Positions 5,015 to 20,447 of a stretch of DNA of 64,000 nucleotides are shown piece by piece. The DNA is taken from the NCBI GenBank assembly GCA_018302815.1, contig JAGVZE010000009.1:56149-120148 (forward strand), in the 5' to 3' direction. Source of the DNA: Candidatus Woesearchaeota archaeon. GTDB lineage: Archaea; Nanobdellota; Nanobdellia; Woesearchaeales; ARS49. The notes under the pieces are model-generated. The model made no database searches and was not told the origin of the DNA. It saw nothing but the letters and a program-made list of their open reading frames with translations. Position 1 is the first letter of the stretch. Each line of letters starts with the position of its first letter. The translations under genes and the position numbers were made by a program.

Positions 5015-5209
5015 ATGGGACGAATCAAAACACAGCTCATCAAGAGATTGACCAAAGACATAATCAAGATGAGCAAGCCTGAACTCGGACAAGAATTCGA
5101 GCAGAACAAGAAAGTAGTCGCAGAACTCATCAGCGGAGCCAGCAAGAAAATACGAAACTCCGTCGCAGGCTACGCAACCCGATTGATGAAAGTCAAAGAA
5201 GAATACTAG
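5015..5209 (+). CDS. rps17e: 30S ribosomal protein S17e
   Basis: 'MGRIKTQLIKRLTKDIIKM...' matches the S17e N-terminus (MGRVRTKxVKR...). Start taken at the internal Met at 5015 rather than the listed ORF start at 4916. Confidence 0.75.
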   Translation: MGRIKTQLIKRLTKDIIKMSKPELGQEFEQNKKVVAELISGASKKIRNSVAGYATRLMKVKEEY

Positions 5210-5217
5210 TTTTCTGC

Positions 5218-5232
5218 AAACCTTTTTATACG
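5218..5232 (+). promoter_or_regulatory. putative archaeal TATA box/BRE upstream of the tRNA
   Basis: 'aaacctttttatacg' lies about 28-35 nt upstream of the tRNA 5' end at 5258, the usual spacing for archaeal promoters. Confidence 0.4.
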
Positions 5233-5257
5233 CTCATAGATGAGTTTCTTTTCAAAC

Positions 5258-5371
5258 GGGCCTGTAGTCTAACGGATAGGATACAGGGCTTCGGACAGCG
5301 CCCTGCGATGATATGAGCACAAGCGTTGGCTAAGACACCCTGCGGTCTGGGTTCGAATCCCAGCAGGCTCG
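5258..5371 (+). tRNA. tRNA-Arg(TCG) with a 42-nt intron at the canonical 37/38 position
   Basis: The acceptor stem GGGCCTG/CAGGCTC pairs with one G-U. The T-arm is CTGGG-TTCGAAT-CCCAG. The anticodon loop is CTTCGGA (U33, anticodon TCG, purine 37). An approximately 42-nt insertion (5295-5336) lies between position 37 and the 3' anticodon stem CCCTG and can form a hairpin, consistent with a bulge-helix-bulge intron. No encoded CCA. Confidence 0.65.
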
Positions 5372-5372
5372 T
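5355..5372. repeat. attL: tRNA 3'-end core sequence 'gaatcccagcaggctcgt'
   Basis: This 18-mer recurs at 18608-18625. A 16-nt subset recurs at 18480-18495, and a 10-11 nt core recurs at 19559-19569. Confidence 0.7.
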
Positions 5373-5433
5373 AGTAATTTTTCTACTAATACCACAGGAA
5401 GGTTTATAAGCAACGCATCGACCCAGACCCGCC

Positions 5434-6717
5434 ATGAGACCATTTATCGACCAAAACAAGCGAGTCACCCAAAACCTCACCAGCCTACAAAAAAACGAAG
5501 CCATCAGCCCACAAAACAAGAAAGAGATAGCAGACATGGCTCGCAAGATGTCAAGCGAAGGACTCGCACCCGCAAGCATCGCCAAGTTCATAACGACATT
5601 CCACAACGGACTCGACAAGTGCGCACCGCCCAATTTCAACATGGCGAGCGCAACAGTAGATGAACTGCGCGAGTTTATCATCAACATCCAAAAATCAAAG
5701 TACAGCATCAAGACACAAGCCGAGATAAAGAAAGCCATCAAGAAATACTACAAGGGCAACGATAAGGAGCACCTTGTCAAATTCTTCAAGACAAGCATTC
5801 CGCAAAGCAAGAAGACAGTTCCCAACGAGGGAGATATGTTGACTCTAGAAGAGGTTGAGCGAATGATAACTGCTTGCAAAAATACCCGTGACAAGGCTAT
5901 CATCTCTCTCCTTGCTGAAAGCGGTATGAGAATAGGCGAGCTTGGCGCGCTTCAAATCAAACACGTCAATTTTGACAATCATGGCGCGGTTATCACAGTT
6001 CCTTCTGGAAAGACAGGAGCTAGGCGCATTCGTGTAGTTCAGTGTGAGCGTCACTTGCGTCAATGGTTGATGGACCACCCACACAAAGATAACGATGAGG
6101 ATTGGTTGTGGATAAACTTGAACGCAAGCCAGAAAAGCGCGCTCTATGATAGAATGGATTACGAGTGTATCCGCATGATGATTGTTAAGAAAGCGATAGA
6201 CGCGCAAGTTAGAACATACAAAGTACGAACTGTTGAAGATAAGAAGAGTCATAAACTTAGAGATGTTTATCGTACAAAGGTTCACCCGCACTTGTTCAGA
6301 CATACTGCCGCGACTCGGCTTGCCAAGTTTATGACTGAGCAACAACTCAAGATTTATCTTGGGTGGACTGCGGGTAGTGATATGGCGAGCGTGTACGTTC
6401 ACTTGTCTGGTAAGGATGTTGATGATACCGTGTTGAAGATGAACGGGTTGCAACCAATGGAAACGCAGGTTGAGAGCGTGCGGTGTCAGGCTTGTGGTAG
6501 GATGAATGCGTCTGAGAGTTCTTCTTGTAACACTTGTTTTAGACCTTTGAGTGTTAAAATGGCTTTGGTGAATGAGGAGCGTGAGAAGCACGCTTCGAAA
6601 GTTTTGGAAGCTATCATGTCAGGTGAGTTGAGTGTTGAAGAAATCAAGGCGTTCACATCAAAGCAGAAGAAAGCGAAAGTTTTTATCGAGCAACCAACTA
6701 ACGAGGGGTTAGTATGA
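5434..6717 (+). CDS. int: tyrosine recombinase/integrase
   Basis: 'HLFRHTAATRLA' is the HxxR box and '...ASVYVHL' the catalytic Tyr region. 'ESGMRIGELGALQ' is the Arg-I region. The C-terminus carries a CxxC...CxxC zinc-ribbon extension. Located next to a tRNA. Confidence 0.85.
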   Translation: MRPFIDQNKRVTQNLTSLQKNEAISPQNKKEIADMARKMSSEGLAPASIAKFITTFHNGLDKCAPPNFNMASATVDELREFIINIQKSKYSIKTQAEIKKAIKKYYKGNDKEHLVKFFKTSIPQSKKTVPNEGDMLTLEEVERMITACKNTRDKAIISLLAESGMRIGELGALQIKHVNFDNHGAVITVPSGKTGARRIRVVQCERHLRQWLMDHPHKDNDEDWLWINLNASQKSALYDRMDYECIRMMIVKKAIDAQVRTYKVRTVEDKKSHKLRDVYRTKVHPHLFRHTAATRLAKFMTEQQLKIYLGWTAGSDMASVYVHLSGKDVDDTVLKMNGLQPMETQVESVRCQACGRMNASESSSCNTCFRPLSVKMALVNEEREKHASKVLEAIMSGELSVEEIKAFTSKQKKAKVFIEQPTNEGLV

Positions 6718-6880
6718 AGAAAGAAATGCCTGTTTTGAATTTGAGACTGCTCGGAAAGACTTTCCGAATTTTCACATACGAAACATTGATGCGCAGGAAC
6801 AAACTCTGAACTTTGTATGGGTAGCTCGCAATAAAACGCTGACATAAGTATATATTTCAAAGCCCTTAACAGTTTGATAC

Positions 6881-9800
6881 ATGGTTGTTCCCAGTCTCCA
6901 GAATTATTCTATTGAGCGTTTGAATAAAGAAATCGCTCAGAACCAGCAACTTATCAGTGAATTACGAGGTCGTGCTGGTCAAGCTAAACGGATTGAGGGC
7001 GCGTCAAAAGGAATTCAACTTCTCCAACTTGAACTTACTTCTCGTCAGATTCAGCAACAGGCGGACGAAGGCATTATTTCTCAAGCTCAAGCTTCGGGTT
7101 TGATACAAGCTAGAGCGTCCAGCACACAAGCGAGTACGAAGCAAGCACCACTAAGCCCTTACGAACGCGCATTCGGACCCGCCAGCTTAACACGACAAGC
7201 AATATTAGCAAAGCCAACAGCACTGCAACAATTAGGCGGTGCGCCGTCACAAATCCAATTCCAAACCATCCCCCGAGAAGTGACATACAAAGTTGGAGAG
7301 CGATTCGGCGAACCAGTCCTAGTCACGCGAAGAGAACAAGCAACGCAAGCACTCCTGCCGTTCGGCAAACTTCAATTCGGCATTCCAGCAAGCCTAGCAT
7401 TCAGCCAAAAAGCACAGCTTGAAGGCATCCCCACCATCACAGACACCAGAGGTATCACCTTAACCGAACAGGGCGAGTTACGCGCTCGCCCAACAACTCG
7501 TTTCGAAAGCCAAACAGAAAAACAACTCCGAGAACAAGTACCGATGGCAAACCGAGCAGTGTTCGAAGCAGACATAACAAAAGAACCTCGCATTCCAGCA
7601 CGAGTCTTAACAGAAACAGAACAACGCGCACTCTTCGCGCCAGCATTCCAAACCAAAGCGAGCATACTAAGCCCACTACTCCAACGACGAGTGGAAGAAC
7701 TTTCACAACCAGAAACCCAACGACCATCCCCTTTCATAGAGCCAACACCAGAAGTGGGGTTGAGTTTTGATTTTCAAAGACAAATACTTGCAAGCCTGCC
7801 TCGACTTGTTGAGCAAACCGCGCAAGAACAAGGCATCACTCCACTCACCAAGTTCACTCGTAAAACTGATTTTTTCAACGCAAAAGAGTTCGGTGGTGAA
7901 ATTCGAAGCATCAGCGAAGAAGTAAATAAAGCCGTTGATTTTGAAAAACTCCTCGCGAAAGCAGGCATCAAAACATCAATACCAAGCAAGGCGATAAGTT
8001 TTGAAGAGTTCAAACTCGTCCCCCTCGTCAAAAAAATAACTCGACCAGAAGAAACTCGACAAAAGCTTCTCAAAGACATTGAGCAAACAGAAAAACTATC
8101 ACCTGCTCTTGCTAAGATAGAACGAGCGTTTGCAGATATTGAGTTCGGAGCGAGAGAGTACGCGAGCAGACCCAGCAACATAGCACTGACCGCCCTTACT
8201 GGTGGAGCGTTCGGACTTGCAGAAAAAGGCGCGCTGGCTGGACTGACTATTTTCAAAGGCGCAACACAAGCCGAAAAAGCGATAAGTAACATTAACAAAA
8301 TACTTCTTGGAGCAACAGCAGGACTTGAAGGTTTACGCATAGCGACAAGCAAGAAGCCTTTTGAAGAAGTCGGAGCCTTGCCATTCAAGCTCATCGCGTT
8401 TGGCGCAGGAGCACAAGCGACGAAAACACTTCTCACACGACAACCTTCAAGGGTTCAAGTTGGTGAGACTTTAATTTTGGAAAAACAAACCATTCCAACA
8501 AGCGAAGGACTGGTTCAAGTCCGAGGAACAGCTATCACTCCTGCTAAAATAACTAGAGTCAGCCCGATAGAAAAAATGTTGACAGACTTACGGTTCAAAC
8601 TCGAAGTTGGAAAAACAGAAGAGTTCAAAATCGTCCGACAGTTCAAAGGAGAAATCAAAATTGCTCGAGAAGAAAAAGTTGACTTGTATGGAGGTGGCAA
8701 AATCGTAAGTGAGAACTTGCGAATAGCAAAAGTCAGCGCGGAAATATTCTCGCAAAACTTGAAAGGCGAACTCGCAAAGTTCGCAGAACAATTAGCTGTT
8801 ATAACCTCATCAGGTCCGTCGGGAGCGAAGGCGTTAGGACAACTAAGAATTCGACGAGTGCGAAAAGGAAAACTCACGCAGAGCATTTTTGAACAAATCG
8901 CGGACATCCAACCATCAGAGATAGGGGGGGTTAGGGTTGTTACTGGAACTGCGAGGCTTCCAGCGATAAAAGGAAAAGTCAGGCGAGAACAGCCTTTCTT
9001 TGAAATTGGCGCGGTTGAAAAGTTCAAACCGCCAAGCCGTCAAAAAATTACTGACATTTTCGAAACAAACATTCGAGAACTGGCAGACAATCTTGACGCG
9101 AGCCTAAGAACTTTAACATTGAAGGAGACACCGCCGCGCAAGCCGTCCAAAAAAACAGTTGAAGAACTATTATCAATACTCCCTCAAGAAAGAGTTTTTT
9201 TCCGTGCGCGAAAAAGAGAAATAACGGCACGACAATTAGAAAAACGTTTCAAAGGAGCCGTTGTTAAACTCCCAAGTAAAGGAGCTTTCAAAGACGCATT
9301 AACTAGAGCGTGGGGCAAAAAAGGACAGTTCATTTTAGGACAGCCGAGTCGCATATCGACAGGCATCAGTCCACGCCCTGCGATAGAACCTGAATCGTTG
9401 AAAGTGAGCATTGATAGAGCACTCTCGCCGTTCCGAACGTTTCAAGTCCCGAAACAAGCTCTTTCACTAGCGTTCGAAAGAGATGTTAGTTTCACCACGC
9501 TCGCGCCAACACAAATTGAAAGAATAGCTCCTTCCAGACTAGCTGAACTTCCCAGACTGCAAACTCGAACGCTTCAAGATGTTGGAACTCAAACTGGTAA
9601 CGCTATCGCAACAATCGTTCAAGGCTTGGAAAAAACTTTGACAGGAACCAAGCCAATAGAAGGCATCAAAATTAAGACGATAACAGGACCGACAGCGCGA
9701 CCGATAGAAATAACCACGCCAGTCACAGGCGCAGGAACAGGAACCACTCCAGCCACAACGCCAAAAGAAGGAACAACCCCCAGACCACGAGGCGAGACAG

Positions 9801-10156
9801 GAACAGGCTTCCAGTTCAGAGAACGACCTTTCGAACCGCCAACACTTCCACTTTTTCCGCCTTTCTTTTTAGGAGGCGGTGGCGGTAGCGAAGAGAGAAG
9901 ACAACAACAACGCTATCCTAGAGCACCAACTCGTCGCGCTCCTAGTTTGTTGGGCTTGTTTTTAGGCAAAAAAGGAATACCGAAAGGAAAACTCACTGGG
10001 CTGGAAATTCGAGGTTTACCAAGAAGCGTTCGGCGCAAACAGTTCGAAATTGAAGGGCGAGACAGGCTTGACTTTGGAATATTAGAACGCAATTTGAAAA
10101 AAGCTTTGGGTATCTCAAAAGTTAAAAAAGGAAAGAGAGGTAAGAAAAAACGATGA
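6881..10156 (+). CDS. large low-complexity protein of the integrated element (candidate structural or DNA-binding protein)
   Basis: 1091 aa. The N-terminus is coiled-coil-like. The protein is rich in Q/T/E/K/R/P. The C-terminus has a TPxTTP stretch, a GGGGGSEERRQQQR segment and a strongly basic tail (KVKKGKRGKKKR). No TM segment and no enzymatic motif. Confidence 0.5.
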   Translation: MVVPSLQNYSIERLNKEIAQNQQLISELRGRAGQAKRIEGASKGIQLLQLELTSRQIQQQADEGIISQAQASGLIQARASSTQASTKQAPLSPYERAFGPASLTRQAILAKPTALQQLGGAPSQIQFQTIPREVTYKVGERFGEPVLVTRREQATQALLPFGKLQFGIPASLAFSQKAQLEGIPTITDTRGITLTEQGELRARPTTRFESQTEKQLREQVPMANRAVFEADITKEPRIPARVLTETEQRALFAPAFQTKASILSPLLQRRVEELSQPETQRPSPFIEPTPEVGLSFDFQRQILASLPRLVEQTAQEQGITPLTKFTRKTDFFNAKEFGGEIRSISEEVNKAVDFEKLLAKAGIKTSIPSKAISFEEFKLVPLVKKITRPEETRQKLLKDIEQTEKLSPALAKIERAFADIEFGAREYASRPSNIALTALTGGAFGLAEKGALAGLTIFKGATQAEKAISNINKILLGATAGLEGLRIATSKKPFEEVGALPFKLIAFGAGAQATKTLLTRQPSRVQVGETLILEKQTIPTSEGLVQVRGTAITPAKITRVSPIEKMLTDLRFKLEVGKTEEFKIVRQFKGEIKIAREEKVDLYGGGKIVSENLRIAKVSAEIFSQNLKGELAKFAEQLAVITSSGPSGAKALGQLRIRRVRKGKLTQSIFEQIADIQPSEIGGVRVVTGTARLPAIKGKVRREQPFFEIGAVEKFKPPSRQKITDIFETNIRELADNLDASLRTLTLKETPPRKPSKKTVEELLSILPQERVFFRARKREITARQLEKRFKGAVVKLPSKGAFKDALTRAWGKKGQFILGQPSRISTGISPRPAIEPESLKVSIDRALSPFRTFQVPKQALSLAFERDVSFTTLAPTQIERIAPSRLAELPRLQTRTLQDVGTQTGNAIATIVQGLEKTLTGTKPIEGIKIKTITGPTARPIEITTPVTGAGTGTTPATTPKEGTTPRPRGETGTGFQFRERPFEPPTLPLFPPFFLGGGGGSEERRQQQRYPRAPTRRAPSLLGLFLGKKGIPKGKLTGLEIRGLPRSVRRKQFEIEGRDRLDFGILERNLKKALGISKVKKGKRGKKKR

Positions 10157-10674
10157 GTGTTAGCTGGCTGAGCAGAATGCTTGCAGTGGCTGCGAAAGAT
10201 GAACTTGTCCTAGCGCAAGCTAAGAAAAACAAGCTCACAATTTATGGTGCTAGAGCGATTCAAAAGCGTTTGGGTTTTTTGAGCCGTCCAACTTATGACT
10301 ATGATGTTTCAGCACGACATCCACAGCGTGAAGCTCGCTTGTTGGAAAAACAGCTTGACAGGATTGCTCAGGGTGACTTGTTTTTTTCGCGTCCGAGCGA
10401 GTTTCATAAAGGAACGCACAAAGTTATTTATGCAGGCTGGGACAACAAGCGAGAAACGAAAGATGACGTTGGCATCGCAGATTTTTCTCGCACTGGAAAA
10501 ATTTGCAGTCAAGCGATAGACGGAGTGAGGTACGCTTGTTTGTCAGCAGTCGAAAAGGACAAGCGCAAAGCGTTATCAAGCAAAGAGTTCGCTTTCAGGC
10601 ATAAGAAGGACGCTGAAGACCTAGAACGCATCAAAATTTACAAGCGAACGTTTGGGTACAGGAGGCGACGATGA
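10153..10674 (+). CDS. hypothetical protein (element)
   Basis: 173 aa. ATGA-type overlap with the upstream gene. Basic C-terminus. Confidence 0.4.
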   Translation: MSVSWLSRMLAVAAKDELVLAQAKKNKLTIYGARAIQKRLGFLSRPTYDYDVSARHPQREARLLEKQLDRIAQGDLFFSRPSEFHKGTHKVIYAGWDNKRETKDDVGIADFSRTGKICSQAIDGVRYACLSAVEKDKRKALSSKEFAFRHKKDAEDLERIKIYKRTFGYRRRR

Positions 10675-10970
10675 AAGACGTATCAATGGATGATTTGAAA
10701 AAAACAAGAGAACTTCTATCAGGCGGAAAAGACAGCGATGATGTGTTAGTCATCCAACTCGCCGTCACAAAACAGGGCGTTGCGGTTCACAGTCTAAGCA
10801 AAATATCGAGTGAACAATACGCCAGCGCGCAAAACGTCGCACAACCAGTAGGTGATGAGGACTGGTCTAGCTTTGAAGAAGACACCGATGAGCCAATGCC
10901 AGCCGTTCAAAACGTCAAACCACTAAGCAAAGCAAAACTCAAACTACAAACAACAAGCTATATTGGGTGA
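10671..10970 (+). CDS. hypothetical acidic protein (element)
   Basis: 99 aa. Overlaps the upstream stop. Acidic composition. Confidence 0.35.
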   Translation: MKDVSMDDLKKTRELLSGGKDSDDVLVIQLAVTKQGVAVHSLSKISSEQYASAQNVAQPVGDEDWSSFEEDTDEPMPAVQNVKPLSKAKLKLQTTSYIG

Positions 10971-10975
10971 AAAAT

Positions 10976-11251
10976 TTACTTTGACAAGTGCGCAGGCAGG
11001 TATTCTTCCATCAAACTAACTTTTTCAGCTATTTTTCTCGTTTTTCGCCAAAGAAGAAAACGTCTTATCCACAAAGGGTCCGTCCACCACTTCATTTGAC
11101 AATATTGATTGTTGAACGCGCTGATTTGTTCTTTGAAACGGGAATATTTATGGTGAATTGATACTTCAAACAAGCCAACAGCCAAGTTCCGCTTGTACTC
11201 GCGCCTCAAAGACGCAACATCGTGTTTGAGGCGTACTCGTGCCATATTCAT
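10976..11251 (-). CDS. hypothetical protein (element)
   Basis: 91-aa ORF, convergent with the plus-strand block. Confidence 0.3.
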   Translation of the reverse strand: MNMARVRLKHDVASLRREYKRNLAVGLFEVSIHHKYSRFKEQISAFNNQYCQMKWWTDPLWIRRFLLWRKTRKIAEKVSLMEEYLPAHLSK

Positions 11252-11401
11252 AAGAAGAACACCAAAATAAGGCAGTTAAAAACCTTTCGAGAAAAACAGC
11301 CCTTACAGTCCTTAATAGTGCTCTAATAGCACTAATAAGAAAACGTTTTTTCTTAACGACCGAAAGACCTAAAAAGAAAGACCCATCGCCAGAGTTTTAA
11401 C

Positions 11402-11563
11402 ATGGCGAAAAAACAAAACGAGTGCGAAAAACGAAACGGACACCGCTTTGACGGATCCAATGCGGACAGTGAGAGCTATGAAAACATGACACTAGAAGTG
11501 ACGTGTTTGGATTGCGAAATGCGATGGGTAGCGGAAAGCAACTGGGAACCTGTCAACGAATAA
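11402..11563 (+). CDS. small Cys/His zinc-ribbon-like protein (53 aa)
   Basis: Read by hand from the sequence: MAKKQNECEKRNGHRFDGSNADSESYENMTLEVTCLDCEMRWVAESNWEPVNE. It has C..H...C..C spacing. It is below the 60-aa cutoff of the ORF track. Confidence 0.25.
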   Translation: MAKKQNECEKRNGHRFDGSNADSESYENMTLEVTCLDCEMRWVAESNWEPVNE

Positions 11564-11589
11564 AACCTTGAATACAAATTCAAAGGCAG

Positions 11590-11612
11590 TTTTTTTTCTT
11601 TATTTTCATTTA
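11590..11612 (+). terminator. T-rich tract (candidate archaeal terminator)
   Basis: 'gttttttttctttattttcattt' lies downstream of the small plus-strand ORF. Confidence 0.25.
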
Positions 11613-11637
11613 CACCAAAACAAACGTCCCTTTAACA

Positions 11638-12174
11638 TCAGGGTGTGCTGGTTGAGGAGTCCAAAACCACACCCCCCTTTTCCTTCTTGGGACGACCACC
11701 TCGCCATTGACCAATGTTGCGTCTTCGCTGAATGCCTGCTTTAGTACGCTCGCTTATCTTGCGCCGTTCCTCGCTCGCCGACCACGCCATGATAGAAAGA
11801 ATCACGTCACCTATCGGGTTATCATTCCCAGTATCAAGCCAGCTTTCCGTAAGACTCTTAACGCCCACGCCGCGCTCTCTGAGCTTCTGCACGCGCCCAA
11901 CAGCGACAAACATAGGCTCACGGCTGAACCTGTCGAACTTCCATACCAGAATGGCTTGGAAGCGTAACAACATCGCGTCTTGAAGCATCTGTCTGAACTG
12001 TGGACGGTTTGGGTCCGCACCACTTCCCCTATCAACGTACTCGTTCACTATTTGCCATTGCTTGTTAATTACCCATTGCCTTAACGGTTCAAGTTGGTTC
12101 TCTGGCTCTTGATACCTGCGGTCTTCTTTGTTTGTCTCATCCAAACTCACGCGAGCATACAAACAAACCTTCAT
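11638..12174 (-). CDS. serine recombinase (resolvase/invertase catalytic domain)
   Basis: 'CLYARVSLDE' carries the YARVS nucleophile motif near the N-terminus. The resolvase-fold length is about 140 aa, followed by a short basic 'GRPKKEKGG' tail. The HTH domain is reduced or absent. Confidence 0.65.
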   Translation of the reverse strand: MKVCLYARVSLDETNKEDRRYQEPENQLEPLRQWVINKQWQIVNEYVDRGSGADPNRPQFRQMLQDAMLLRFQAILVWKFDRFSREPMFVAVGRVQKLRERGVGVKSLTESWLDTGNDNPIGDVILSIMAWSASEERRKISERTKAGIQRRRNIGQWRGGRPKKEKGGVVLDSSTSTP

Positions 12175-12189
12175 TTCGGGTTACACCTG

Positions 12190-12262
12190 TTCTTAACGTA
12201 TCTTTGGCAGGCGTAACGCCACGCTAATAACGCTAATAAGCCTGAAAACATCGCTAATAAGA
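12190..12262. repeat. iteron-like direct repeats CGCTAATAA x3 plus the inverted repeat GGCGT-A-ACGCC
   Basis: 'ggcaggcgtaacgccacgctaataacgctaataagcc...atcgctaataag' lies in the intergenic region between the serine recombinase and the ATPase gene. Confidence 0.5.
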
Positions 12263-12277
12263 AAAACAGCGCGACAA

Positions 12278-13207
12278 TCAAGCAGTATCACCGCCCGTCA
12301 TCCCTGACTTTTCCCGTTCTGATTCTAGGTTACTAACAGTATGAACGCCAACCATTGAGTCTTTGAAACGTGATATTGTACCCTGTACCATGTCTTTTGA
12401 CACTTTTTCACCAGAAAACTTGCTCAAAGCCAATGCTAACTGAGGTTGAGTCCAGCCTTTCTCACTCAAAACCACCATCAAGCTTCCCAAACGATTCAAA
12501 AGCTTCTGAGCAAACTTGTCAGGCTTCTTATCAAGCATCGCCAGCGCGTCAAGCTTACGCCGTTCATACTCTGCGTCATCGAAAGGAAAGAACTTTGTGA
12601 ACGCATCTCGAAAGTCGGGCTGAATGCGCGACGAATAATCCTTTTTGCCCGCAAGGTACAAGCTTTGCTTTCGAGGATACGAGTAAAACTTGAAGAAACC
12701 ACGTTGCAAACGTGTCCCTGCTGGTTTGGTGTACACTTCAATCAAACAACGACTACGATACACCGCGAGATACTTGTCAACCTCGAAAAAGTTTGCGATG
12801 CAAAACAACAAGATGAGTTGTCGGCTCCTGCAAGTTGTCAAAAGCCAAACGAGCCTTTTGTTTTCCGTGCTCATCGAGCCACGACTTGATGCTGTTGCGT
12901 ACGCTTCATCAAATAGTATCACGGTGAACGGCGGAGCCTTCAAAACTAATCTTTGCAAGCTTTCAAAGTCATAACATAAACTTTCAAGCGTGAACGTTGG
13001 CGTTCTTTTGTATCCTTTGCTGATAGCGATGCTTTCACACAACGTGCCCACTTGACAAGCCAGAGTGCTTTTGCCTTCGCCCTCACGACCGCTGAACAAA
13101 AGCACGCCGTCAAACTTATCCGCGACAAGCTCAACAACTGCGTTAAGATTACTGAACAGGTATCCTGAACAGTATACCTCTTGCCCGTTGTGTAATTTTG
13201 TTTTCAT
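12278..13207 (-). CDS. P-loop NTPase (Walker A GREGEGKST, Walker B ILFDEAY)
   Basis: 309 aa. Walker A and Walker B motifs in an AAA/Zot-like arrangement. Located in the mobile element, so possibly a packaging, replication or partition ATPase. Confidence 0.55.
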   Translation of the reverse strand: MKTKLHNGQEVYCSGYLFSNLNAVVELVADKFDGVLLFSGREGEGKSTLACQVGTLCESIAISKGYKRTPTFTLESLCYDFESLQRLVLKAPPFTVILFDEAYATASSRGSMSTENKRLVWLLTTCRSRQLILLFCIANFFEVDKYLAVYRSRCLIEVYTKPAGTRLQRGFFKFYSYPRKQSLYLAGKKDYSSRIQPDFRDAFTKFFPFDDAEYERRKLDALAMLDKKPDKFAQKLLNRLGSLMVVLSEKGWTQPQLALALSKFSGEKVSKDMVQGTISRFKDSMVGVHTVSNLESEREKSGMTGGDTA

Positions 13208-13605
13208 TTCAGCATCGCAACGCTCGGGTTCTCCAGCTCACTCATCAACAAGCCATGTTTTTGCATCAAGTCCCGCAAGAGTTTTTCAAAACTATCAATG
13301 GCTTTGTACGCTTCAAAACCTTTCAGTCCAGTTTCGTGATTGCGCTGGTCGGGGTTACGTAAGCGTAAGACACCATTATAAGCGTTGGTCTTGCGTTGCG
13401 CTTCTGTCTCACTATCACTTGCGCGCTGGCGTTCTTCAACGTTCAAGAAGGGGTATAACTCGCGGTGAACGCTTGTGAGCGTTTGATGCCATTCGGGGAA
13501 CTTTCTCGCAGTCGAACACTGGTTTGACAGCTGTAGGAGCTTGTCAATTCTTTGAAGCGTTGCCTGCGCGCTATTCCAAGAGCTTATACCAAAATCAGCA
13601 CTCAC
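13204..13605 (-). CDS. hypothetical protein (element)
   Basis: 133 aa. Overlaps the neighbouring gene by 4 nt. Confidence 0.35.
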   Translation of the reverse strand: MSADFGISSWNSAQATLQRIDKLLQLSNQCSTARKFPEWHQTLTSVHRELYPFLNVEERQRASDSETEAQRKTNAYNGVLRLRNPDQRNHETGLKGFEAYKAIDSFEKLLRDLMQKHGLLMSELENPSVAMLK

Positions 13606-13991
13606 GAGAAGCTCAAACCTCGGCGAGTTGTTTTTTTATCTTGCGAATTTTGCCCGCGTATTTTGAAGATATTTTTTTCATCTGTCGTCACCTCTTCTTT
13701 TCTTTTAGGAGTAAAATATCCATTCACGTCCTTACCGCATCGCTCGCCTCTGGGAAGAATTCTCAAACGAACACCACCACACTCGCACTGAAGCGCAAAA
13801 GTTTTCATACAAGAAAAACAACCAGCCCAACGGCTTTCGTAAACAATGATGCTCTTGTGGTAACTCTTCGGCGGAACCTTTCCGCAGTGCCTGTGCTTGT
13901 CAACGTAACGGCTTCGCAGAACTGGCTTGTTGCAAAAACGGCACTGCCTAAGAGAAGTTTGATGCACGAGTTCATACTTTGCGCGAGTCAT
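13602..13991 (-). CDS. Cys-rich zinc-finger protein (element)
   Basis: 129 aa with several CxxC / C..H..C clusters. Confidence 0.4.
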   Translation of the reverse strand: MTRAKYELVHQTSLRQCRFCNKPVLRSRYVDKHRHCGKVPPKSYHKSIIVYESRWAGCFSCMKTFALQCECGGVRLRILPRGERCGKDVNGYFTPKRKEEVTTDEKNIFKIRGQNSQDKKTTRRGLSFS

Positions 13992-14636
13992 TCAAACACG
14001 ACCGCGATGTTTTGCGAAAGACGCTTCAAGCTCTTCGGGTGAAAGTTCAGTTGCAGAGTCGAACATCACCATGAAGTCCTGCGGGGTCATCGCCATAAGT
14101 CGGTTCCATGTCATGTTGTCTGCGAGTGGTGGTCCAATGATGAACTTGTTTTTCGGCTGGAATTCGGGCTTGCGAAACCATATCTCGCACATCTGACAAA
14201 CGTTGTGGCGTTTGCAGAATAACCACTGCGTCCCCATGAGACCACAGAAATAACAAAGCTCTTTCGGCTTAACTTCATCGCGTTCAAAAAGACTCATTCT
14301 CTTTCTCCATGTGGCGATGTCTTCAGGTGAGAGTTTGAATTTATAGTTTTGCTTATGACAGTGCGAGCCTCGCAAGCTGGTCTCTTCCGAAGTCATGCCA
14401 ATATCTGCGCCGTGAACGTGCTGCCTTTTGCAGAACGGGCAGTCCACTTGAACGCGGAAGAACCGCGAGCCGTCAAACGCCGTTTCAAGCCCAATGATGC
14501 GCGCTATCACTACAAAAACGCTTAATTGTTCGGCTCTTATAAACCGCCCGCAACACGCGCAATTCTCTGGCGGTTCGCCCTTCATACAGTACGGGTTTGC
14601 GCAATCTCGCTCGCATGGACAACCACTCATTTTCAA
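13992..14636 (-). CDS. Cys-rich protein (element)
   Basis: 214 aa with more than 20 Cys in CxC/CxxC arrangements. Confidence 0.4.
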   Translation of the reverse strand: MKMSGCPCERDCANPYCMKGEPPENCACCGRFIRAEQLSVFVVIARIIGLETAFDGSRFFRVQVDCPFCKRQHVHGADIGMTSEETSLRGSHCHKQNYKFKLSPEDIATWRKRMSLFERDEVKPKELCYFCGLMGTQWLFCKRHNVCQMCEIWFRKPEFQPKNKFIIGPPLADNMTWNRLMAMTPQDFMVMFDSATELSPEELEASFAKHRGRV

Positions 14637-14778
14637 AACACCTCTCTTTTTTGTTTACGAATGAAACGTCGCGCTCTGGTAAGCTCTCTGTGCAACGAAG
14701 ACAGCGCGGTAGCGTTCTCGGCTTCAAGTTGTACGAACAAGCGGTTTAAACCACTACTGCGCTGTTTAAAACCCGTAT

Positions 14779-15765
14779 TCATAATTTATCCCTCATTGCG
14801 ATGAACTGAAGTACGCGGTACGGTACTTTGTCTTTTTTCCCGCAAAGACCGCGATGCCACGCCTGCTTGACGGCGTGATAAAGTGCTTCATCGTTACCTT
14901 CGTAACGGCTTCGCCCGCCATTATGCGGCGTGCCTGCGTCTTCGCAACCCAAAAAACCACTCTCAACACAAAGATATTGTTGCGCGTTCAATGACACAAT
15001 GTGTCGCCAACAATGCCCCAAGCCCCCACTAACGCTCCAGTTTTTCCCCGTGTTTTCGCTTCCATGTAAGGGGTGCGGGACTCTGCCACCCTTCAAACCC
15101 GCAGAGCACACGTCCCTGATTGTTAATTCATAAAATGCACTTTTACGACCCCCCTTCTGATAAGTTCGCGGAACAGGCGCAGTTCTCTCAAGCTCGATGT
15201 TTTCCTGATGTCTTTCGCGGAATACGGGCGGGAGTTCATCGAAGGTGATGTTTGTAGGCATCGTTGCGACCTCAACAGTGTAACGTCCCGCGCTCGCTTT
15301 CAGCTCTTCAGGTAATGTGTTGATGTGTTCTTGGCTTCGCGGAACGTAACTGCCAGCGCAGACGACGTACTGCCAAATCGACCTGACTTCCCCTGACCCG
15401 CCTGTTGGAATGTTCGGTATCTTCTTACCTTCTGGCTGAAAATAGAATGCGTGAAAACCAACGCGCTTACTCGAACGGCTCGTCAAGGTCGGCTTCAATT
15501 TTTCCAACGGTGTTTTCTGGATGTCATCAACGTCAACGATGACCAGCCCGTCAAGGTCAGTCCCCGCTATTCCGATGTTGTATCCCACCTTCAAAAGTTG
15601 AACTGCCTGCTGAACTGTCAGCCTCGCTTTTTTCCACGAACCACTCACGCATGGGTCTTTGCCATTCTTCAACAAGCGGAACAAAAACGGTTCGTATGTC
15701 GCAGGCATTCCCTGTTTCAGGAGCGTGATGAACTTCAAAAACTCATCAGGACACGTCGCATTCAT
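14779..15765 (-). CDS. bifunctional primase-polymerase (PrimPol-domain) protein
   Basis: 'DLDGLVIVDVDD' resembles the PrimPol catalytic D.D motif region. Translationally coupled to the upstream D5-like helicase by a 4-nt overlap. Confidence 0.55.
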   Translation of the reverse strand: MNATCPDEFLKFITLLKQGMPATYEPFLFRLLKNGKDPCVSGSWKKARLTVQQAVQLLKVGYNIGIAGTDLDGLVIVDVDDIQKTPLEKLKPTLTSRSSKRVGFHAFYFQPEGKKIPNIPTGGSGEVRSIWQYVVCAGSYVPRSQEHINTLPEELKASAGRYTVEVATMPTNITFDELPPVFRERHQENIELERTAPVPRTYQKGGRKSAFYELTIRDVCSAGLKGGRVPHPLHGSENTGKNWSVSGGLGHCWRHIVSLNAQQYLCVESGFLGCEDAGTPHNGGRSRYEGNDEALYHAVKQAWHRGLCGKKDKVPYRVLQFIAMRDKL

Positions 15766-17792
15766 TCGAGCACCTTCAACTTATGGGGATTAACCTGAAC
15801 AACCGTGTTTTTGATTAACGCGAGGGATACTGCGCCCTCACCAACCTCTTTCACCACGACATCATACTCTGCGCCCTCACCCAAGTCCAAACGGCGAACG
15901 ACACCCCCCACAAGTTCAGATAACGCGCAGTCTTCACAATACGGTTTTCCCGACCTTTGGTACGAGCAAGGCGACCCAGCACAGCCAATACAAGGGTGGT
16001 GTGTGATGTCAGTCTTTTCAAAACCTGCATTGAACAGAAGTGAGGGAACGCCCTGCTCGACCTGCCCGCCCTGCCCAGTTGGGTTGGGTGGTCTGGGCGG
16101 GCAGTGTGATTTTCTATTATCGTCTACTTTTTCATTATTTACTATATTTTTATCATTATTTACTATATTTTTATCATTTCCCTGTGTGTCAAGAGAGTGA
16201 TTTTCTGCCACCCCACCGTGCCCGCCCTGCCCATTTGTTCGTGGTCGTTCTTTTTCCCCCTGTTCTGACTGTTCGAAAAGCTTAGCTTGGTTATCTTCCG
16301 TGTTATCTTCATTTTCTTCTTTTTTCGCGGTTTTCAATTTAATTCCGCGAACATAATGAACACGTTTTTCACTTTTTTCAATCCGTTTTTTTATCGACCG
16401 CGTGTACGATGCCTTTGCGTACAATTTTTTGAAAAAATCGTTTTCATCGAAACATTCAATTTCGCGGTCGTCGCAATAATCGCGGTACGCGAAGTAAACA
16501 TCATCCTTCAATTCTTTTTCATCATCCGCTTTAATCGTGCAGTCCATAACGAAACACAAAACGGGGTCGGTTTTTCGAAGGTATATTTCGCGGGTTTGCG
16601 CGACCTCCGCGCCGAACCCTTTGGCGTTCAATAATTCGTTTAATCCGTCCAAAGCGAAGTTCAACATTCCCGACAATTCGTTCGGCGTTGTGATTTTTTC
16701 ACTTTTTTTGGTATCCGCATTTTTTTCTTCAAATTTTTGTTTGAATAAAATCAAAATTGGTCTGCGCCACATCGCCGTGTCATCCTCGGGTAATTGCGGT
16801 AATTCGTTCGCCGAAAACGCGAGTTTCGCGTACACATTCAAATTAACATGCGCGCCGAATTTGTATTCCCCTGTGATTGTGTCCCCGCCCGTAATCGTTT
16901 TTATCGTTGACACGGATTGTTTATCTAAATTTTTCCCCGAAATGTCGGGCACGATGTTCGCCAGTTTACCGTGAAGGTTCACGACCGAAAATCGGTCGCG
17001 CATATTGTGCGGGCTTATCGTGCTGATGTTTTTTTGCCCGATGAATTTCGTCATTGCGCGAAGCAGTGTTGATTTTCCGTTCGCGCCCTCGCCTTCAAGC
17101 ATTAAAAAATTGGCGAATCGGTAATCGCGCAGTAAGGTATATCCAAACCATTTTTTTAATACTGCCCTGTCGTTTTGTTGTGTTGTGGGTAGGATTTCTT
17201 CGAGGAATTTTTCGAACTCTGGACATTTGGCGTTGGAGTCGTATTTCACGTCAATTTTTTGTAAAAACGGCGTTTCGGGGGTGTGCGGTGTTATTTTTTT
17301 GGTGAACACGTTTAATATTCCGTTTTGCACGCAGAAAAGTTCGGGTGGTGCTTCGGGAAATTCGGTTTTGCACGTCATGGAATATATTTTTGATGTGACT
17401 TCGTTTTTCATATTTCGCGTGGCGAACGCGCCGAGAATTTGTTGTACCAATAAATTTATTTTTTGTTTTCCGTTGGGCGTGTAATATCCGTTTTCGTAAA
17501 CGTAAATTGTCGGGCGGTCGGGGTCGCCGATGCTGATGAAATGTTGCGTTGTTAATATCGCGTCTGCGGTTTCCTGCGCGATTTCTGCCGTGCTTTTTTC
17601 GCGGTCGCTCGCATCATCGATGCCTTCGGCGCGTAATATTTTCACTGCATCTTTTTTCTGTTTTTTATTTAATTCTTTTTTCTGTGTGGGCTTCTCGTTT
17701 TTCGCTTTTTTCGTTTTTTGTGTTGAAGGTTTTGTTGGCTTGACTGCTGTTTTTCGTGGTGATGTCTTTTTGAGCTTAGTTTTCTTAACCAC
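15762..17792 (-). CDS. D5/P4-family primase C-terminal domain plus SF3 helicase
   Basis: 676 aa. 'FLMLEGEGANGKSTL' is the Walker A in the context of a P4-type primase-helicase. The N-terminus is Lys-rich. The C-terminus has a Cys cluster (CIGCAGSPC...CEDC) and a tandem DKNIVNN repeat. Confidence 0.75.
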   Translation of the reverse strand: MVKKTKLKKTSPRKTAVKPTKPSTQKTKKAKNEKPTQKKELNKKQKKDAVKILRAEGIDDASDREKSTAEIAQETADAILTTQHFISIGDPDRPTIYVYENGYYTPNGKQKINLLVQQILGAFATRNMKNEVTSKIYSMTCKTEFPEAPPELFCVQNGILNVFTKKITPHTPETPFLQKIDVKYDSNAKCPEFEKFLEEILPTTQQNDRAVLKKWFGYTLLRDYRFANFLMLEGEGANGKSTLLRAMTKFIGQKNISTISPHNMRDRFSVVNLHGKLANIVPDISGKNLDKQSVSTIKTITGGDTITGEYKFGAHVNLNVYAKLAFSANELPQLPEDDTAMWRRPILILFKQKFEEKNADTKKSEKITTPNELSGMLNFALDGLNELLNAKGFGAEVAQTREIYLRKTDPVLCFVMDCTIKADDEKELKDDVYFAYRDYCDDREIECFDENDFFKKLYAKASYTRSIKKRIEKSEKRVHYVRGIKLKTAKKEENEDNTEDNQAKLFEQSEQGEKERPRTNGQGGHGGVAENHSLDTQGNDKNIVNNDKNIVNNEKVDDNRKSHCPPRPPNPTGQGGQVEQGVPSLLFNAGFEKTDITHHPCIGCAGSPCSYQRSGKPYCEDCALSELVGGVVRRLDLGEGAEYDVVVKEVGEGAVSLALIKNTVVQVNPHKLKVLE
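16131..16175. repeat. tandem direct repeat and flanking G-rich inverted repeats inside the helicase gene
   Basis: 'ttactatatttttatcattatttactatatttttatcatt' is a 21-22 nt unit repeated twice. Next to it, 'ctgcccgccctgcccag...ctgggcgggcag' forms an inverted repeat (16056-16100), and 'gcccgccctgccca' recurs at 16223. Confidence 0.6.
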
Positions 17793-18007
17793 TACCGCAC
17801 CTGTCCCCGTTGCGGGAGTGTGTTGTTTTGAAGCGTTGTGAGGGCTTCGAGCTTTCTTTGTCGATAGGCTGTCTGCTCACAAGCCCGACTGCAATAAAGC
17901 GCGTCTATGCGTTTATTTCGAGAAAGCTGTTCCTTGCAAAAATCACATCGCCTGAACTGTGAGGTTTTCGCAGGTTTTAAAATTTTAGTTTGGTTTGTTG
18001 TCATCAA
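17792..18007 (-). CDS. small zinc-ribbon protein (element)
   Basis: 71 aa with CDFC...CSRAC. Start/stop overlap with the helicase gene. Confidence 0.35.
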   Translation of the reverse strand: MMTTNQTKILKPAKTSQFRRCDFCKEQLSRNKRIDALYCSRACEQTAYRQRKLEALTTLQNNTLPQRGQVR

Positions 18008-18211
18008 TATCCTCGGCTTTTACGCCTTTTGGCGGGTTTTCGAGATTCGCCTCTCACCCGCCACTTTTTTCTCTTAACTTGAAATCAATTCTTTTTTTAG
18101 CGTGATAACTCGTTGAGTTTTTTGATTAGGCTTTGAGCAGGTGCGGATAATGTCTGGATTTCTTGTGACGGTATGTTGAGAAGTTCGCGGATTGATTTTT
18201 GTAGGTTGTCT

Positions 18212-18370
18212 TTAATCAAGGGATGGTTGAGCATCACCCGTTGCATTTTTCAACGAAGCTCGACGGATGAACGTGGCGACTGGCATGACTTCGCGTTTCG
18301 CCGCATTTCTGAGCGCGCTTAATTCGGCTTCGCTTAAACGTAGGTTCAAAAATTTCGTTCGTGGTTTCAT
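18212..18370 (-). CDS. ribbon-helix-helix (CopG/MobC-like) small DNA-binding protein (52 aa)
   Basis: Read by hand: MKPRTKFLNLRLSEAELSALRNAAKREVMPVATFIRRASLKNATGDAQPSLD. It matches the RHH pattern (beta-strand 'FLNLRLS', then 'SALRNAAKREVMPVATFIRRA'). A TATA-like 'aaatattaaatac' lies upstream on the minus strand. Confidence 0.4.
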   Translation of the reverse strand: MKPRTKFLNLRLSEAELSALRNAAKREVMPVATFIRRASLKNATGDAQPSLD

Positions 18371-18479
18371 CGTGGACTTTTCGAGTGCGTAACAAGTATT
18401 TAATATTTCAGAATTTCAGTGCAGTGCTAACAAGAACTTACCCATGACTATGTATGCGTGATTGTTAGTTATTTTAACC

Positions 18480-18495
18480 ATCCCAGCAGGCTCGT
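18480..18495. repeat. attR1: 'atcccagcaggctcgt' copy of the tRNA 3' end
   Basis: 16/16 match to 5357-5372. Confidence 0.7.
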
Positions 18496-18607
18496 TTCAT
18501 TTTATCACGCTTCGCGTTTCTCATTTCAGTCACTATGGGATTCGAACGTCCAGACATCTGCGGATGTCTATCCCTTAGAATCGCTCGCTGATGCTCGCAC
18601 TTCTAAG

Positions 18608-18625
18608 GAATCCCAGCAGGCTCGT
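18608..18625. repeat. attR2: 'gaatcccagcaggctcgt' second copy of the tRNA 3' end
   Basis: 18/18 match to 5355-5372. The flanking 't.taa.tt' is partly conserved as well. Confidence 0.7.
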
Positions 18626-18714: not shown

Positions 18715-19539
18715 ATGGTCAATTCGAATGAGTTACGTTGGGTCGGTTTAGAACTGGATTGGTGCGGGGAAGGTTTTTCTCCTTATTCAGATGGGCGTTC
18801 GCTTTGCTATTCGTCTGGCTTGAAAGGAGGTTATTGTTTGATACATTCGCCGTCGGATGATAATTCGTTCAGAGATTTTGATCGGCTTCAAGATGGATCC
18901 ATAGTGATTTCCTCATTGCTTGACTTTTATGAAAGAGATTGGCTAGGGGCTGCTGCTTCAGGAGCGATATGGACCGATTACTCTTCAAAAGATGTCCCTA
19001 TGATGCGGGCAAAGCTTGAAAAGGAACTTATTATGAAAACTCCTGATGGTCGTCATTTTGTTTGGTTAACAGAACCAAAGCCATATGTGTCTGATGTAAC
19101 GAGCGCATTTTTGCGAAAAGACATCGCCGACTTGCTAACGAGTTCAGAAGGAGATCTTTCAACTGCATTATTCTCTGGAATAAGGGTGTATGGGGAGTTG
19201 CACAAAAGAGGACTCATATTGCAAGGTTCAGATAATGATCTTAAACTGAAAAGAGTGCAATGGGAAAAAACTGCGCTTAACTCATATGATGCGCAATTAG
19301 GTCATTTTTTGCGAACAGGCGAAGGAAAGGAAGCAATAGACAAATTAACTTACGGTGTTCAGATCTTTTGCGGCGTAGATCAAACAAGACTGCGTCGTCT
19401 ATTGACTTATGATGGTGCAGCCTTTCAACAGAATCTGGAGCGAATTGCAGTATTGTATTACAAAAATGATGTGAGCGCGCTTCAAAACGACCTTGAGCAG
19501 TTGAAGCAGGAATTGAAGGGAACTTCTAAACGAGCTTAA
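18715..19539 (+). CDS. hypothetical protein, between att copies
   Basis: 274-aa ORF with no motif recognised. It lies between attR2 and the partial att3. Confidence 0.4.
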   Translation: MVNSNELRWVGLELDWCGEGFSPYSDGRSLCYSSGLKGGYCLIHSPSDDNSFRDFDRLQDGSIVISSLLDFYERDWLGAAASGAIWTDYSSKDVPMMRAKLEKELIMKTPDGRHFVWLTEPKPYVSDVTSAFLRKDIADLLTSSEGDLSTALFSGIRVYGELHKRGLILQGSDNDLKLKRVQWEKTALNSYDAQLGHFLRTGEGKEAIDKLTYGVQIFCGVDQTRLRRLLTYDGAAFQQNLERIAVLYYKNDVSALQNDLEQLKQELKGTSKRA

Positions 19540-19558
19540 GAGTTATTCTACAAAGCAC

Positions 19559-19569: not shown

Positions 19570-19577
19570 TTTCATTT

Positions 19578-20446: not shown

Positions 20447-20447
20447 A

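Follow-up and report, generated by a model that had tools for sequence, protein, structure and literature searches.

A 13.1-kb element integrated at the tRNA-Arg(TCG) gene of a Woesearchaeota archaeon, probably a cryptic integrated element or integrative plasmid

In the genome of a Candidatus Woesearchaeota archaeon, the 3′ end of a tRNA-Arg(TCG) gene recurs downstream as direct repeats, and an integrase gene and other genes of mobile-element type lie between the copies. An earlier note on this DNA, made from the sequence, had taken the interval for an integrated element of roughly 13 kb. The locus raises the question of what was inserted at the tRNA gene, where the inserted DNA ends, and which description suits it best: plasmid, virus or immobile relic. 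We examined it within a 64-kb stretch of DNA (the window), to which all coordinates refer unless a contig is named. Positions 5373–18495 are very probably a complete integrative element of ~13.1 kb in a Woesearchaeota chromosome, either a cryptic integrated element (CIE) or an integrative plasmid. The helicase of the element is identical to NCBI J4219_04150 from Candidatus Woesearchaeota archaeon. The small-genome archaeal host that had been proposed is upheld; the host is a tiny archaeon from groundwater, represented by a metagenome-assembled genome (MAG) of the DPANN group.

The integration target is tRNA-Arg(TCG), and the gene is still intact. A full-length tRNA was detected at 5258–5371 on the + strand (Rfam RF00005, 50.7 bits, model positions 1–71 of 71) with a 45-nt intron 3′ of the anticodon loop; the loop, CUUCGGA, gives the anticodon TCG and thus arginine. 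ARAGORN reported zero tRNAs across the 64-kb window, and the intron-containing gene was recovered by the Rfam covariance model only, so that searches for tRNA-anchored islands that rely on ARAGORN would miss this site. The 18-mer GAATCCCAGCAGGCTCGT, at the 3′ end of the tRNA, occurs exactly at 5355–5372 and at 18608–18625, and with 16 contiguous matches and 2 mismatches at 18478–18495. In shuffled sequences, matches to the 18-mer averaged 0.08, and at least three were found in 0 of 100 shuffles. The 10-mer GCAGGCTCGT is present at four sites in the 64 kb, all on the + strand (5363, 18486, 18616 and 19560); its mean in shuffles was 0.09, with at least four in 0 of 100. The attachment (att) direct repeats are four same-strand copies of the last 10–18 nt of the tRNA, a number that no shuffle equalled.

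The first copy (5355–5372, +) is the attL core, an exact 18-mer repeat of which the first 17 nt close the tRNA and the remaining 1 nt lies beyond it. The second (18478–18495, +; 16/18 matches) is the likely attR of the 13.1-kb element, the third (18608–18625, +) matches at 18/18 positions, and the fourth (19552–19577, +) is degenerate, with the exact core GCAGGCTCGT at 19560–19569. Copies 2 and 4 are alike in both flanks (AGTTATTyTA...GCAGGCTCGTTT(T)CATTT). Copies 2 and 3 are separated by a 112-bp remnant (18496–18607), and copies 3 and 4 by a 0.94-kb remnant with one ORFan gene of 274 amino acids (aa). This gene (18715–19539, +), which has att copies on both sides, matched no family in Pfam, PHROG or NCBIfam scans and is missing from the corresponding position of a strain contig (L035, described below); it is probably a remnant of an older insertion. 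We infer a tandem array, in which the complete 13.1-kb element (5373–18495) is followed by the 112-bp remnant and then by the 0.94-kb remnant. Because a fourth att copy lies at 19560–19569, the inserted DNA reaches ~19577, the outer edge of the array, and not 18625. The proposal of integration at the 3′ end of tRNA-Arg(TCG), with repeats at the first three positions, therefore stands and gains a fourth copy; the 274-aa gene, formerly assigned to the flank, probably belongs to the inserted DNA.

From these copies, the attP junction of a free element is predicted to read ...GTTAGTTATTTTAACC-ATCCCAGCAGGCTCGT-AGTAATTTTTCTACTAATACC... or, with the left flank of copy 3, CACTTCTAAG-GAATCCCAGCAGGCTCGT-AGTAA.... 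The predicted attB is GGTTCGAATCCCAGCAGGCTCGT then TTCATTTTATCACG, or TATAACTTAACTG, or TTTCATTTCTAAAAAGG. Within the 112-bp remnant, positions 18537–18556 are an inverted copy of the variable loop and T-arm of the tRNA (reverse complement GTCTGGACGTTCGAATCCCA, compared with GTCTGGGTTCGAATCCCA in the tRNA). This piece may be an integrase-binding inverted repeat or the relic of an inverted tRNA copy.

The integrase gene (5434–6717, +) begins 62 nt past the end of the att core at 5372 and is an intact, uninterrupted open reading frame (ORF), in agreement with the earlier description of a full-length, unsplit gene. It encodes a XerA-like tyrosine integrase of 427 aa with a C-terminal CxxC...CxxC Zn-ribbon. 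Residues 136–325 matched PF00589 (Phage_integrase) with an E-value of 1.1e-17; the best named model was NF040815 (XerA, 98 bits, under its 220-bit cut-off), and the XerA structure 4a8e was matched in the PDB (3.4e-14). The catalytic motifs R (GMRIGE), HxxR (HLFRH), W and Y (SVYVHL) are present by sequence, as in the R..K..HxxR..H/W..Y pattern of tyrosine recombinase catalytic domains. The protein is deposited at NCBI as MBS3148038.1, its gene lying on a contig of 218 kb. A database version of 293 aa, at first sight a truncated integrase, proved to be identical DNA with another gene call. Direct repeats flank the element, one of them being the 3′ end of the intact tRNA gene, and the att core lies outside the integrase ORF. 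The integration mode is type II, or “pNOB8-type”, only in the operational sense that the integrase gene is whole; by sequence the nearest named relative is XerA. The pNOB8-type label given earlier is thus retained for the mode of integration alone, and by sequence the enzyme is XerA-like. In SSV-type (type I) elements attP is located within the integrase gene, which integration splits in two, whereas here a single uninterrupted 427-aa ORF adjoins attL.

All ORFs were scanned against the Pfam, PHROG and NCBIfam hidden Markov models (HMMs). The element has ~15 ORFs, all intact and closely packed in two opposed gene blocks, as had been described. Its replication genes lie on the − strand. An archaeo-eukaryotic primase-polymerase (PrimPol) with a conserved Cys/His-rich C-terminal domain is encoded at 14779–15765 (PF09250, Prim-Pol, 1.1e-6), and a superfamily 3 (SF3) helicase of the P4/D5 type, 676 aa in length, at 15762–17792 (PF19263, 1.4e-18; PF08706, 7.3e-11). 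The helicase scored 187.5 bits with TIGR01613, against a cut-off of 108.7 bits, as expected of a P4/D5-type primase-helicase replicon. At higher coordinates on the same strand are a 71-aa Zn-ribbon protein (17792–18007; CxxC...CxxxC in the sequence, weak PHROG matches of zinc-finger type) and a 52-aa ribbon-helix-helix (RHH) protein of the CopG/NikA-like type (18212–18370; PF21983, 2.9e-7). The RHH protein is probably a regulator, and in a circular form its gene would face the integrase gene across attP.

The remaining − strand genes include a small serine recombinase of 178 aa (11638–12174; PF00239, Resolvase, 4.6e-32, residues 4–157) with a YARVS motif. Since only ~21 residues follow the catalytic domain, the usual C-terminal helix-turn-helix (HTH) appears to be missing, and no frame-shifted continuation was evident downstream. 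An inverted 53-nt piece seen in this gene in two other contigs (L029 and L041) was attributed to a scaffold gap or assembly artefact. Two Cys-rich proteins, of 129 aa (13602–13991) and 212–214 aa (13992–14636), matched nothing in the scans, and a 49-aa ORF (14633–14782) is called in public assemblies (coordinates converted from the gene table of contig L004). On the + strand, the integrase gene is followed by a gene for a 1091-aa ORFan protein (6881–10156), whose sequence suggests a coiled-coil-like part at the N-terminus, a hydrophobic stretch rich in Gly and Ala in the centre, a region rich in Thr and Pro, and, at the C-terminus, a conserved motif and a polybasic tail. A search of 5.8 billion protein clusters returned only the protein itself, and it had no match in Pfam, PHROG, NCBIfam or the PDB. 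Then follow a 173-aa protein (p173; 10153–10674, +), which has a weak PHROG “excisionase” match (E 0.0077) and otherwise no family, and a 99-aa protein (p99; 10671–10970, +), which is called in public assemblies and had no match in Pfam or PHROG scans. By eye, p173 has a possible minimal nucleotidyltransferase motif (G-x16-DxD). A 91-aa protein (10976–11251, −), called in L004, matched phrog_2799 weakly. A 53-aa ORF with C/H pairs (11402–11563, +) lies in the 386-nt gap separating the gene blocks; public gene callers do not call it, and it is an uncertain gene. The gene functions named in the earlier note were all reproduced by these searches, the P-loop ATPase by a weak AAA match and the helicase by D5_N, DUF5906 and TIGR01613 (187 bits).

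The scans of all element ORFs gave no match to a capsid, portal, terminase or conjugation protein, so that the absence of a recognizable capsid or terminase reported before is upheld. The earlier suggestion of searching the 1091-aa and Cys-rich proteins for viral structural families yielded none in the same three collections. A hydropathy scan found no transmembrane segment in any annotated ORF of the element, and hydrophobic segments in ORFs antisense within annotated genes were regarded as spurious. A tailed provirus (Caudoviricetes) was rejected, because Pfam and PHROG gave no terminase large subunit, portal or HK97-fold major capsid protein (MCP) and because 13 kb is too small. The element has the integrase and replication genes of a CIE and none of the hallmarks of a virus (MCP, terminase, portal) or of conjugation. 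As capsid, terminase, conjugation and membrane proteins are not recognizable, it is best placed among the cryptic integrated elements or integrative plasmids. The element also differs in composition from its surroundings, as the note had suggested checking: in 5-kb windows, the tetranucleotide distance to the host mean was 0.020–0.0255 in the element and 0.0095–0.018 in the host DNA, with no overlap. The GC content of the element equals that of the surroundings.

Relatives of the element are few. The helicase has only two close relatives (41–47% identity), beyond which come generic P4-type helicases. The first is on a 12,710-bp metagenomic contig (L030) with a 30-nt terminal overlap, which makes it probably circular (12,680 bp after removal of the overlap). 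This contig carries an integrase-like gene followed by a gene for a 1286-aa protein that runs across the contig junction, and it shares five gene families with the element: PrimPol (58%), helicase (41%), a homologue of the 133-aa protein p133 (33%; tblastn, E 7e-17), the ATPase (36%) and the giant protein. The 1286-aa protein is weakly similar to the 1091-aa protein (E 8e-8 and 1.4e-7) and has a similar layout. The second relative, L031 (8.1 kb), has homologues of the PrimPol (62% identity), the helicase (47%) and the integrase (26%). Its RHH and integrase genes point away from each other, which is the arrangement expected across attP of a free element. Both contigs have the same gene set and no recognizable host genes. 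The element and these two metagenomic relatives, one of them probably circular, form a small new family, and the kinship with L030 suggests that the family can exist as an episome. A PrimPol profile search gave 276 full-length relatives (40–46% identical) from Methanosarcina, Nitrososphaerota, Bathyarchaeota and others, which places the enzyme, by sequence, in a widespread family of stand-alone primase-polymerases of archaeal mobile genetic elements (MGEs). The two PrimPol-relative contexts that were inspected are both elements with integrase, PrimPol and SF3 helicase. One probable integrated element, in Methanosarcina sp. MSH10X1 (SCHL01000001.1; L038, 7367–21110), encodes an integrase, a PrimPol that is 42% identical, an SF3 helicase, small ORFs and a protein of >1670 aa, and its general layout is like that of the window element. 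No plasmid in PLSDB matched the PrimPol.

Several observations weigh against the conclusion that 5373–18495 is a complete and mobile element. The functional attR could be either att copy 2 or copy 3. A precise empty site (attB), which the earlier note had proposed to look for, was not found: exact-protein look-ups of both flanks gave occupied or truncated contigs only, every contig with the 274-aa flank gene also has the element, and one metagenome scan with the tRNA 3′ end gave the occupied junction alone, on a contig ending 12 nt past the core. In the nearest GTDB species representatives the arginyl-tRNA synthetase (ArgRS) is at most 54% identical, so these genomes are too distant for an empty-site test. 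A search of IMG/VR with the 18-mer for an attP junction returned two chance matches within unrelated coding sequence. The circularity of L030 is deduced solely from the ends of the contig, which overlap by 30 nt (k-1) in a single assembly. Inspection by eye of the integrase–RHH intergenic regions of L030 and L031 revealed no att sequence resembling a tRNA. Structural proteins of archaeal viruses are often ORFans, so a virus, too, could lack a recognizable capsid gene.

The last point leads to the alternative that survives best, namely that the element is a provirus or a virus satellite. The ATPase, a small protein and the giant protein would then form a module for morphogenesis or egress, with particles made of ORFan proteins or with packaging by a helper, as in pSSVx and pSSVi, which are packaged by fuselloviruses. 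We consider this rather unlikely. Its case begins with the P-loop ATPase (12278–13207, −; 309 aa, with a helical, HTH-like C-terminus). In a tblastn search of 50,697 phage and archaeal-virus records, the only match of this protein was gp20 of the spindle-shaped Thermococcus virus TPV1 (28% identity, E 2e-6), and the homology was supported by hhalign (probability 96.9%, E 1.4e-10, 206 columns). In TPV1, a 146-aa ORF lies ahead of the gp20 gene and overlaps it, and a gene for an 884-aa protein with a polybasic tail comes after it; in the window element, p133, a 133-aa helical protein (13204–13605, −) kept in both L030 and L031, has its stop overlapping the ATPase start by 4 nt. With the SSV1 B251 ATPase, the ATPase family profile gave a weaker match (78.8%, E 1.7e-5), and PHROG 5484 (“DnaA-like”) matched 29 of 51 family members. 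L030, putatively circular, has two small multi-transmembrane proteins at the position of p173 and p99. A preprint describes morphogenetic modules of an AAA+ ATPase and MCPs in spindle-shaped viruses, as well as plasmid-derived satellites, in DPANN-associated systems, in which this ATPase is joined to archaeo-eukaryotic primase (AEP) primase-helicases (10.1101/2025.02.15.638363).

Against a viral origin, the small, highly hydrophobic MCP that is the hallmark of spindle-shaped viruses has no counterpart among the annotated ORFs, none of which contains a hydrophobic segment or encodes a transmembrane protein. The same ATPase family is found on a 25.5-kb Micrarchaeota MAG record deposited as a plasmid, pSv326-1 (Sv326_1329; hhalign probability 99.3%), where a 152-aa ORF precedes the ATPase gene and a 907-aa protein is also encoded. 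An exhaustive search gave 1735 representatives of the family, and with more than 1700 representatives and a plasmid record among its carriers the ATPase is not virus-specific. An AlphaFold model of the protein (pLDDT 89.6, the predicted local distance difference test) retrieved generic P-loop neighbours only, namely MutS, TRIP13 and Zot (Zot-type assembly ATPases). IMG/VR contained no true relatives by helicase, PrimPol, ATPase or PrimPol profile. As for the small protein, p133 was modelled as a four-helix bundle at low confidence from the single sequence (pLDDT 68.7), for which Foldseek gave generic four-helix bundles with E > 0.2; its comparison with TPV1 gp19 was not significant, and its PDB profile search was empty. 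The giant proteins (884–1286 aa) of the four elements that share the ATPase all end in polybasic tails: KKGKRGKKKR in the window element (10097–10156), KKKRSRKRRKK in L030, GKRRKGGRKRGIL in TPV1 (L039, 11437–14091) and GKRKRKKRLI in pSv326-1 (L043, 1272–3995). Outside the window–L030 pair, no homology among them was detectable (hhalign 5% with TPV1 gp21; none with Sv326_1316 of pSv326-1). Our best guess for the module of p133, ATPase and giant protein is DNA transfer, packaging or partition. A bolder proposal, drawn from the window element, L030, pSv326-1 and TPV1, is that a small helical protein, an ATPase of the TPV1-gp20 type and a polybasic-tailed giant together make up a conserved, so far unrecognized apparatus for DNA transfer or particle formation. 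The element would then be the integrated form of a new DPANN virus or satellite lineage, capsid-less or unconventionally encapsidated, and not a plain plasmid; we hold this to be doubtful.

A second alternative is that the element is a fixed, immobile and possibly domesticated relic, and that strains now exchange the island solely through homologous recombination in the flanking DNA. This seems to us unlikely, and the contigs of related strains speak to it from both sides. In its favour are the failure to find an empty site, an attP junction or a free copy of the element, the serine recombinase that apparently has no DNA-binding domain, and the duplication of att copies 2 and 3 with the accompanying remnants, which indicates that decay happens at the site. 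A further argument comes from a second strain (strain B; contigs L033 and L034), in which the host genes on either side are ~7% diverged, whereas the DNA is 100% identical to the window from ~4960 to ~19640. The identical part covers S17e, the tRNA, attL and the 5′ end of the integrase gene on one side, and the 3′ ends of the 159-aa and 274-aa genes and att copy 4 on the other. The whole island thus appears to sit in two host backgrounds that are ~7% diverged. Because the identical block overshoots the att sites, it fits recent import by homologous recombination, and such exchange of the island between diverged strains would explain several contigs that end at 19654. These strain-B contigs, however, are 0.7–1.8 kb in length and could be graph chimeras.

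The relic is also difficult to reconcile with ~15 intact, tightly packed ORFs, with an integrase that has kept its catalytic motifs, with att copies 1 and 3 that are still 18/18 identical, and with a related contig (L030) that appears circular. Moreover, some contigs break at the att core and one passes there into a different sequence, which suggests that the junction is heterogeneous. Contigs from other samples stop at 5384, 5420 and 5485. A contig from another sample (L001; ENA ERZ27254767 k141_2400560) is 99.9% identical to window 4135–5372 and diverges exactly after 5372. Past the core (L001 1239–1415) it has 55 nt of unique sequence and then an inverted copy of the S17e 3′ end, 96.7% identical to window 5093–5215; its junction reads ...GCAGGCTCGT-TATTTTTTATTCGAATAGC, and the downstream sequence is none of the right flanks of the att copies in the window. 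L001 represents either a genome whose tRNA 3′ end leads into DNA other than the element or an assembly-graph path through such a genome. It could come from an element-free strain whose tRNA-Arg gene is convergent on S17e, from an inverted duplication, or from a graph path. At the other end of the array, contig L035 (Rifle ANAN16-1, SAMN03842437), from a strain that is ~92% identical, departs from the window sequence at 19577/19578, precisely where att copy 4 ends on its outer side. The contig breaks, L001 and L035 all point to real junctions. In L035 (1392–1422), TGCAAAACCTTTTAAAGCG... comes after the stop codon of the 159-aa gene, in place of att copy 4 and the 274-aa gene; this sequence resembles the promoter-like sequence 5′ of the window tRNA (TGCAAACCTTTTTATACGC, 5216–5234).

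A third alternative, in which the interval is ordinary chromosome and the repeats either match by chance or belong to a host repeat that is dispersed, has in its favour the equal GC content and the missing empty site, yet we give it practically no credence, because the shuffles and the tetranucleotide composition effectively refute it, the four one-strand copies include the tRNA 3′ end with no further copy in 64 kb, the genes are of mobile-element type, and L030 and L031 carry the same gene set.

If the interval is a complete integrative element, its history can be pictured as follows. A circular replicon of ~13.1 kb would have carried attP between its RHH and integrase genes, with a 16–18-nt copy of the tRNA 3′ end (core ATCCCAGCAGGCTCGT, possibly extended to 18 nt). 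The XerA-like tyrosine recombinase would have recombined attP with the 3′ end of tRNA-Arg(TCG), an insertion that would regenerate the tRNA, with the element supplying the T-run just downstream, and leave the integrase gene whole. Use of the one site several times would give the tandem array of att copies. If each arrival used the intact tRNA, the complete, tRNA-proximal element would be the newest and the distal units the decayed ones. After excision, the element would be a small circle, primed by PrimPol and with the SF3 helicase driving replication; the RHH protein would act as a regulator, and the serine recombinase may resolve multimers.

The chromosome around the array may also have been rearranged. 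The left flank encodes ribosomal protein S17e, and to the right of the array are a 159-aa gene, a 129-aa gene and the gene for ArgRS. In distant Woesearchaeota-like MAGs (L008, 10001–13078; L009), ArgRS, the 129-aa gene, S17e, an Alba-like ORF (by eye) and tRNA-Arg(TCG) are all on one strand. In the window, where positions 4916–5371 and 20057–22124 were compared with these MAGs, the S17e–tRNA pair is inverted relative to ArgRS, with the mobile array between them, and a rearrangement seems to have occurred at the integration hotspot. Farther to the right, a 45-nt direct repeat (24081–24125 and 24755–24799, 91% identical) surrounds a 179-aa AAA_33 kinase-like gene, in the part of the window with the lowest GC (24–26 kb, GC 0.37); this could be a further small insertion, or else regulatory sequence that was duplicated. 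Two adjacent segments of ~0.8 kb (48530–49353 and 49205–50011, 69% identical) resemble tandem paralogous genes.

Mobile elements of DPANN archaea are poorly characterized and are mostly host-less metagenomic contigs. The present locus is a host-anchored example with exact boundaries, a defined target, a 16–18-nt core, an intact integrase and a putatively circular relative. With attP and attB predicted, read sets that already exist would allow a direct test of excision. How such elements accumulate and spread in small-genome symbionts is illustrated by the att array and by an identical island in two ~7%-diverged backgrounds, and homology of the ATPase module links the element to a Thermococcus spindle-shaped virus and to a Micrarchaeota plasmid.

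Among known systems, att sites at tRNA 3′ ends, and type II integration in which the integrase gene stays unsplit, are described for the pT26-2 family of Thermococcales and Methanococcales (PMC6972569). In these plasmids the tRNA is often tRNA-Arg, integrases are of type I or II, and a putative DNA-transfer ATPase is present; they are 17–38 kb, with seven core genes (t26-5p, 6p, 7p, 11p, 13p, 14p and 15p), and the proteins of the conserved region are mostly transmembrane (PMC6972569). The window element resembles them in its att site at the 3′ end of a tRNA-Arg gene, its type II integration, its possession of an ATPase and its large protein. As it has no transmembrane protein, membership of this family is unlikely. 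A second comparison is offered by the pRN family and by pSSVi and pSSVx of Sulfolobales, small circular replicons with a CopG/RHH regulator and a fused primpol-helicase, some of which use tRNA genes as integration sites. In pSSVx, a plasmid replicon is joined to an AAA+ ATPase of the fusellovirus type, and a helper virus packages the plasmid; pSSVi has an SSV-type integrase that is split on integration. The window element likewise has an RHH regulator, a primpol and a helicase, and its replicon also carries an ATPase gene; unlike that of pSSVi, its integrase is intact, and PrimPol and helicase are encoded by separate genes.

The ATPase module gives a different set of likenesses. In PAV1 and pTN2-like plasmids alike, the genes for a small protein and a P-loop ATPase stand in tandem, and a large protein with coiled coils is also encoded (PMC3543421); tblastn with the window ATPase gave no match in PAV1. 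With TPV1 the element shares the gp20-homologous ATPase, a small ORF that runs into the start of the ATPase gene, and a giant protein whose C-terminus is polybasic, but it has no membrane or structural proteins, the giants are not detectably homologous, and the replication modules differ, that of TPV1 being MCM. Plasmid pSv326-1 of Candidatus Fermentimicrarchaeum limneticum (CP058999.1) is, like the window element, a DPANN replicon with the same ATPase family, a small preceding ORF and a polybasic-tailed protein (907 aa), but it is larger (25.5 kb), has a ParB-like partition gene and has no annotated integrase or PrimPol in the 18.5 kb inspected.

The closest likeness in overall plan is to the CIEs of Thaumarchaeota, which are integrated at tRNA genes by a tyrosine recombinase, are <20 kb and carry primpol and superfamily-3 helicase genes (PMC6563490). 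One of them, CalSub-E1, encodes the primpol and the helicase as separate genes, and tandem arrays formed by re-use of the att site of a tyrosine recombinase are documented (PMC6563490). All of these traits recur in the window element: the tRNA site, the tyrosine recombinase, the size below 20 kb, the separate primpol and SF3 helicase, the lack of a virus or conjugation hallmark, and the att-site array. The differences are that its host is a DPANN archaeon, that beyond the type of PrimPol and helicase no specific gene family was shown to be common, and that it adds a serine recombinase, a giant ORFan and an ATPase module like that of TPV1. The new lineage suggested by the earlier note is therefore new at the family level, within a kind of element that is already well known, and the advance is incremental, extending a known class and adding no new principle. 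The element is a family-level new member of the tRNA-integrating cryptic elements and plasmids of archaea, relatives of which may be catalogued in a survey of DPANN viruses and MGEs (Wu et al. 2024).

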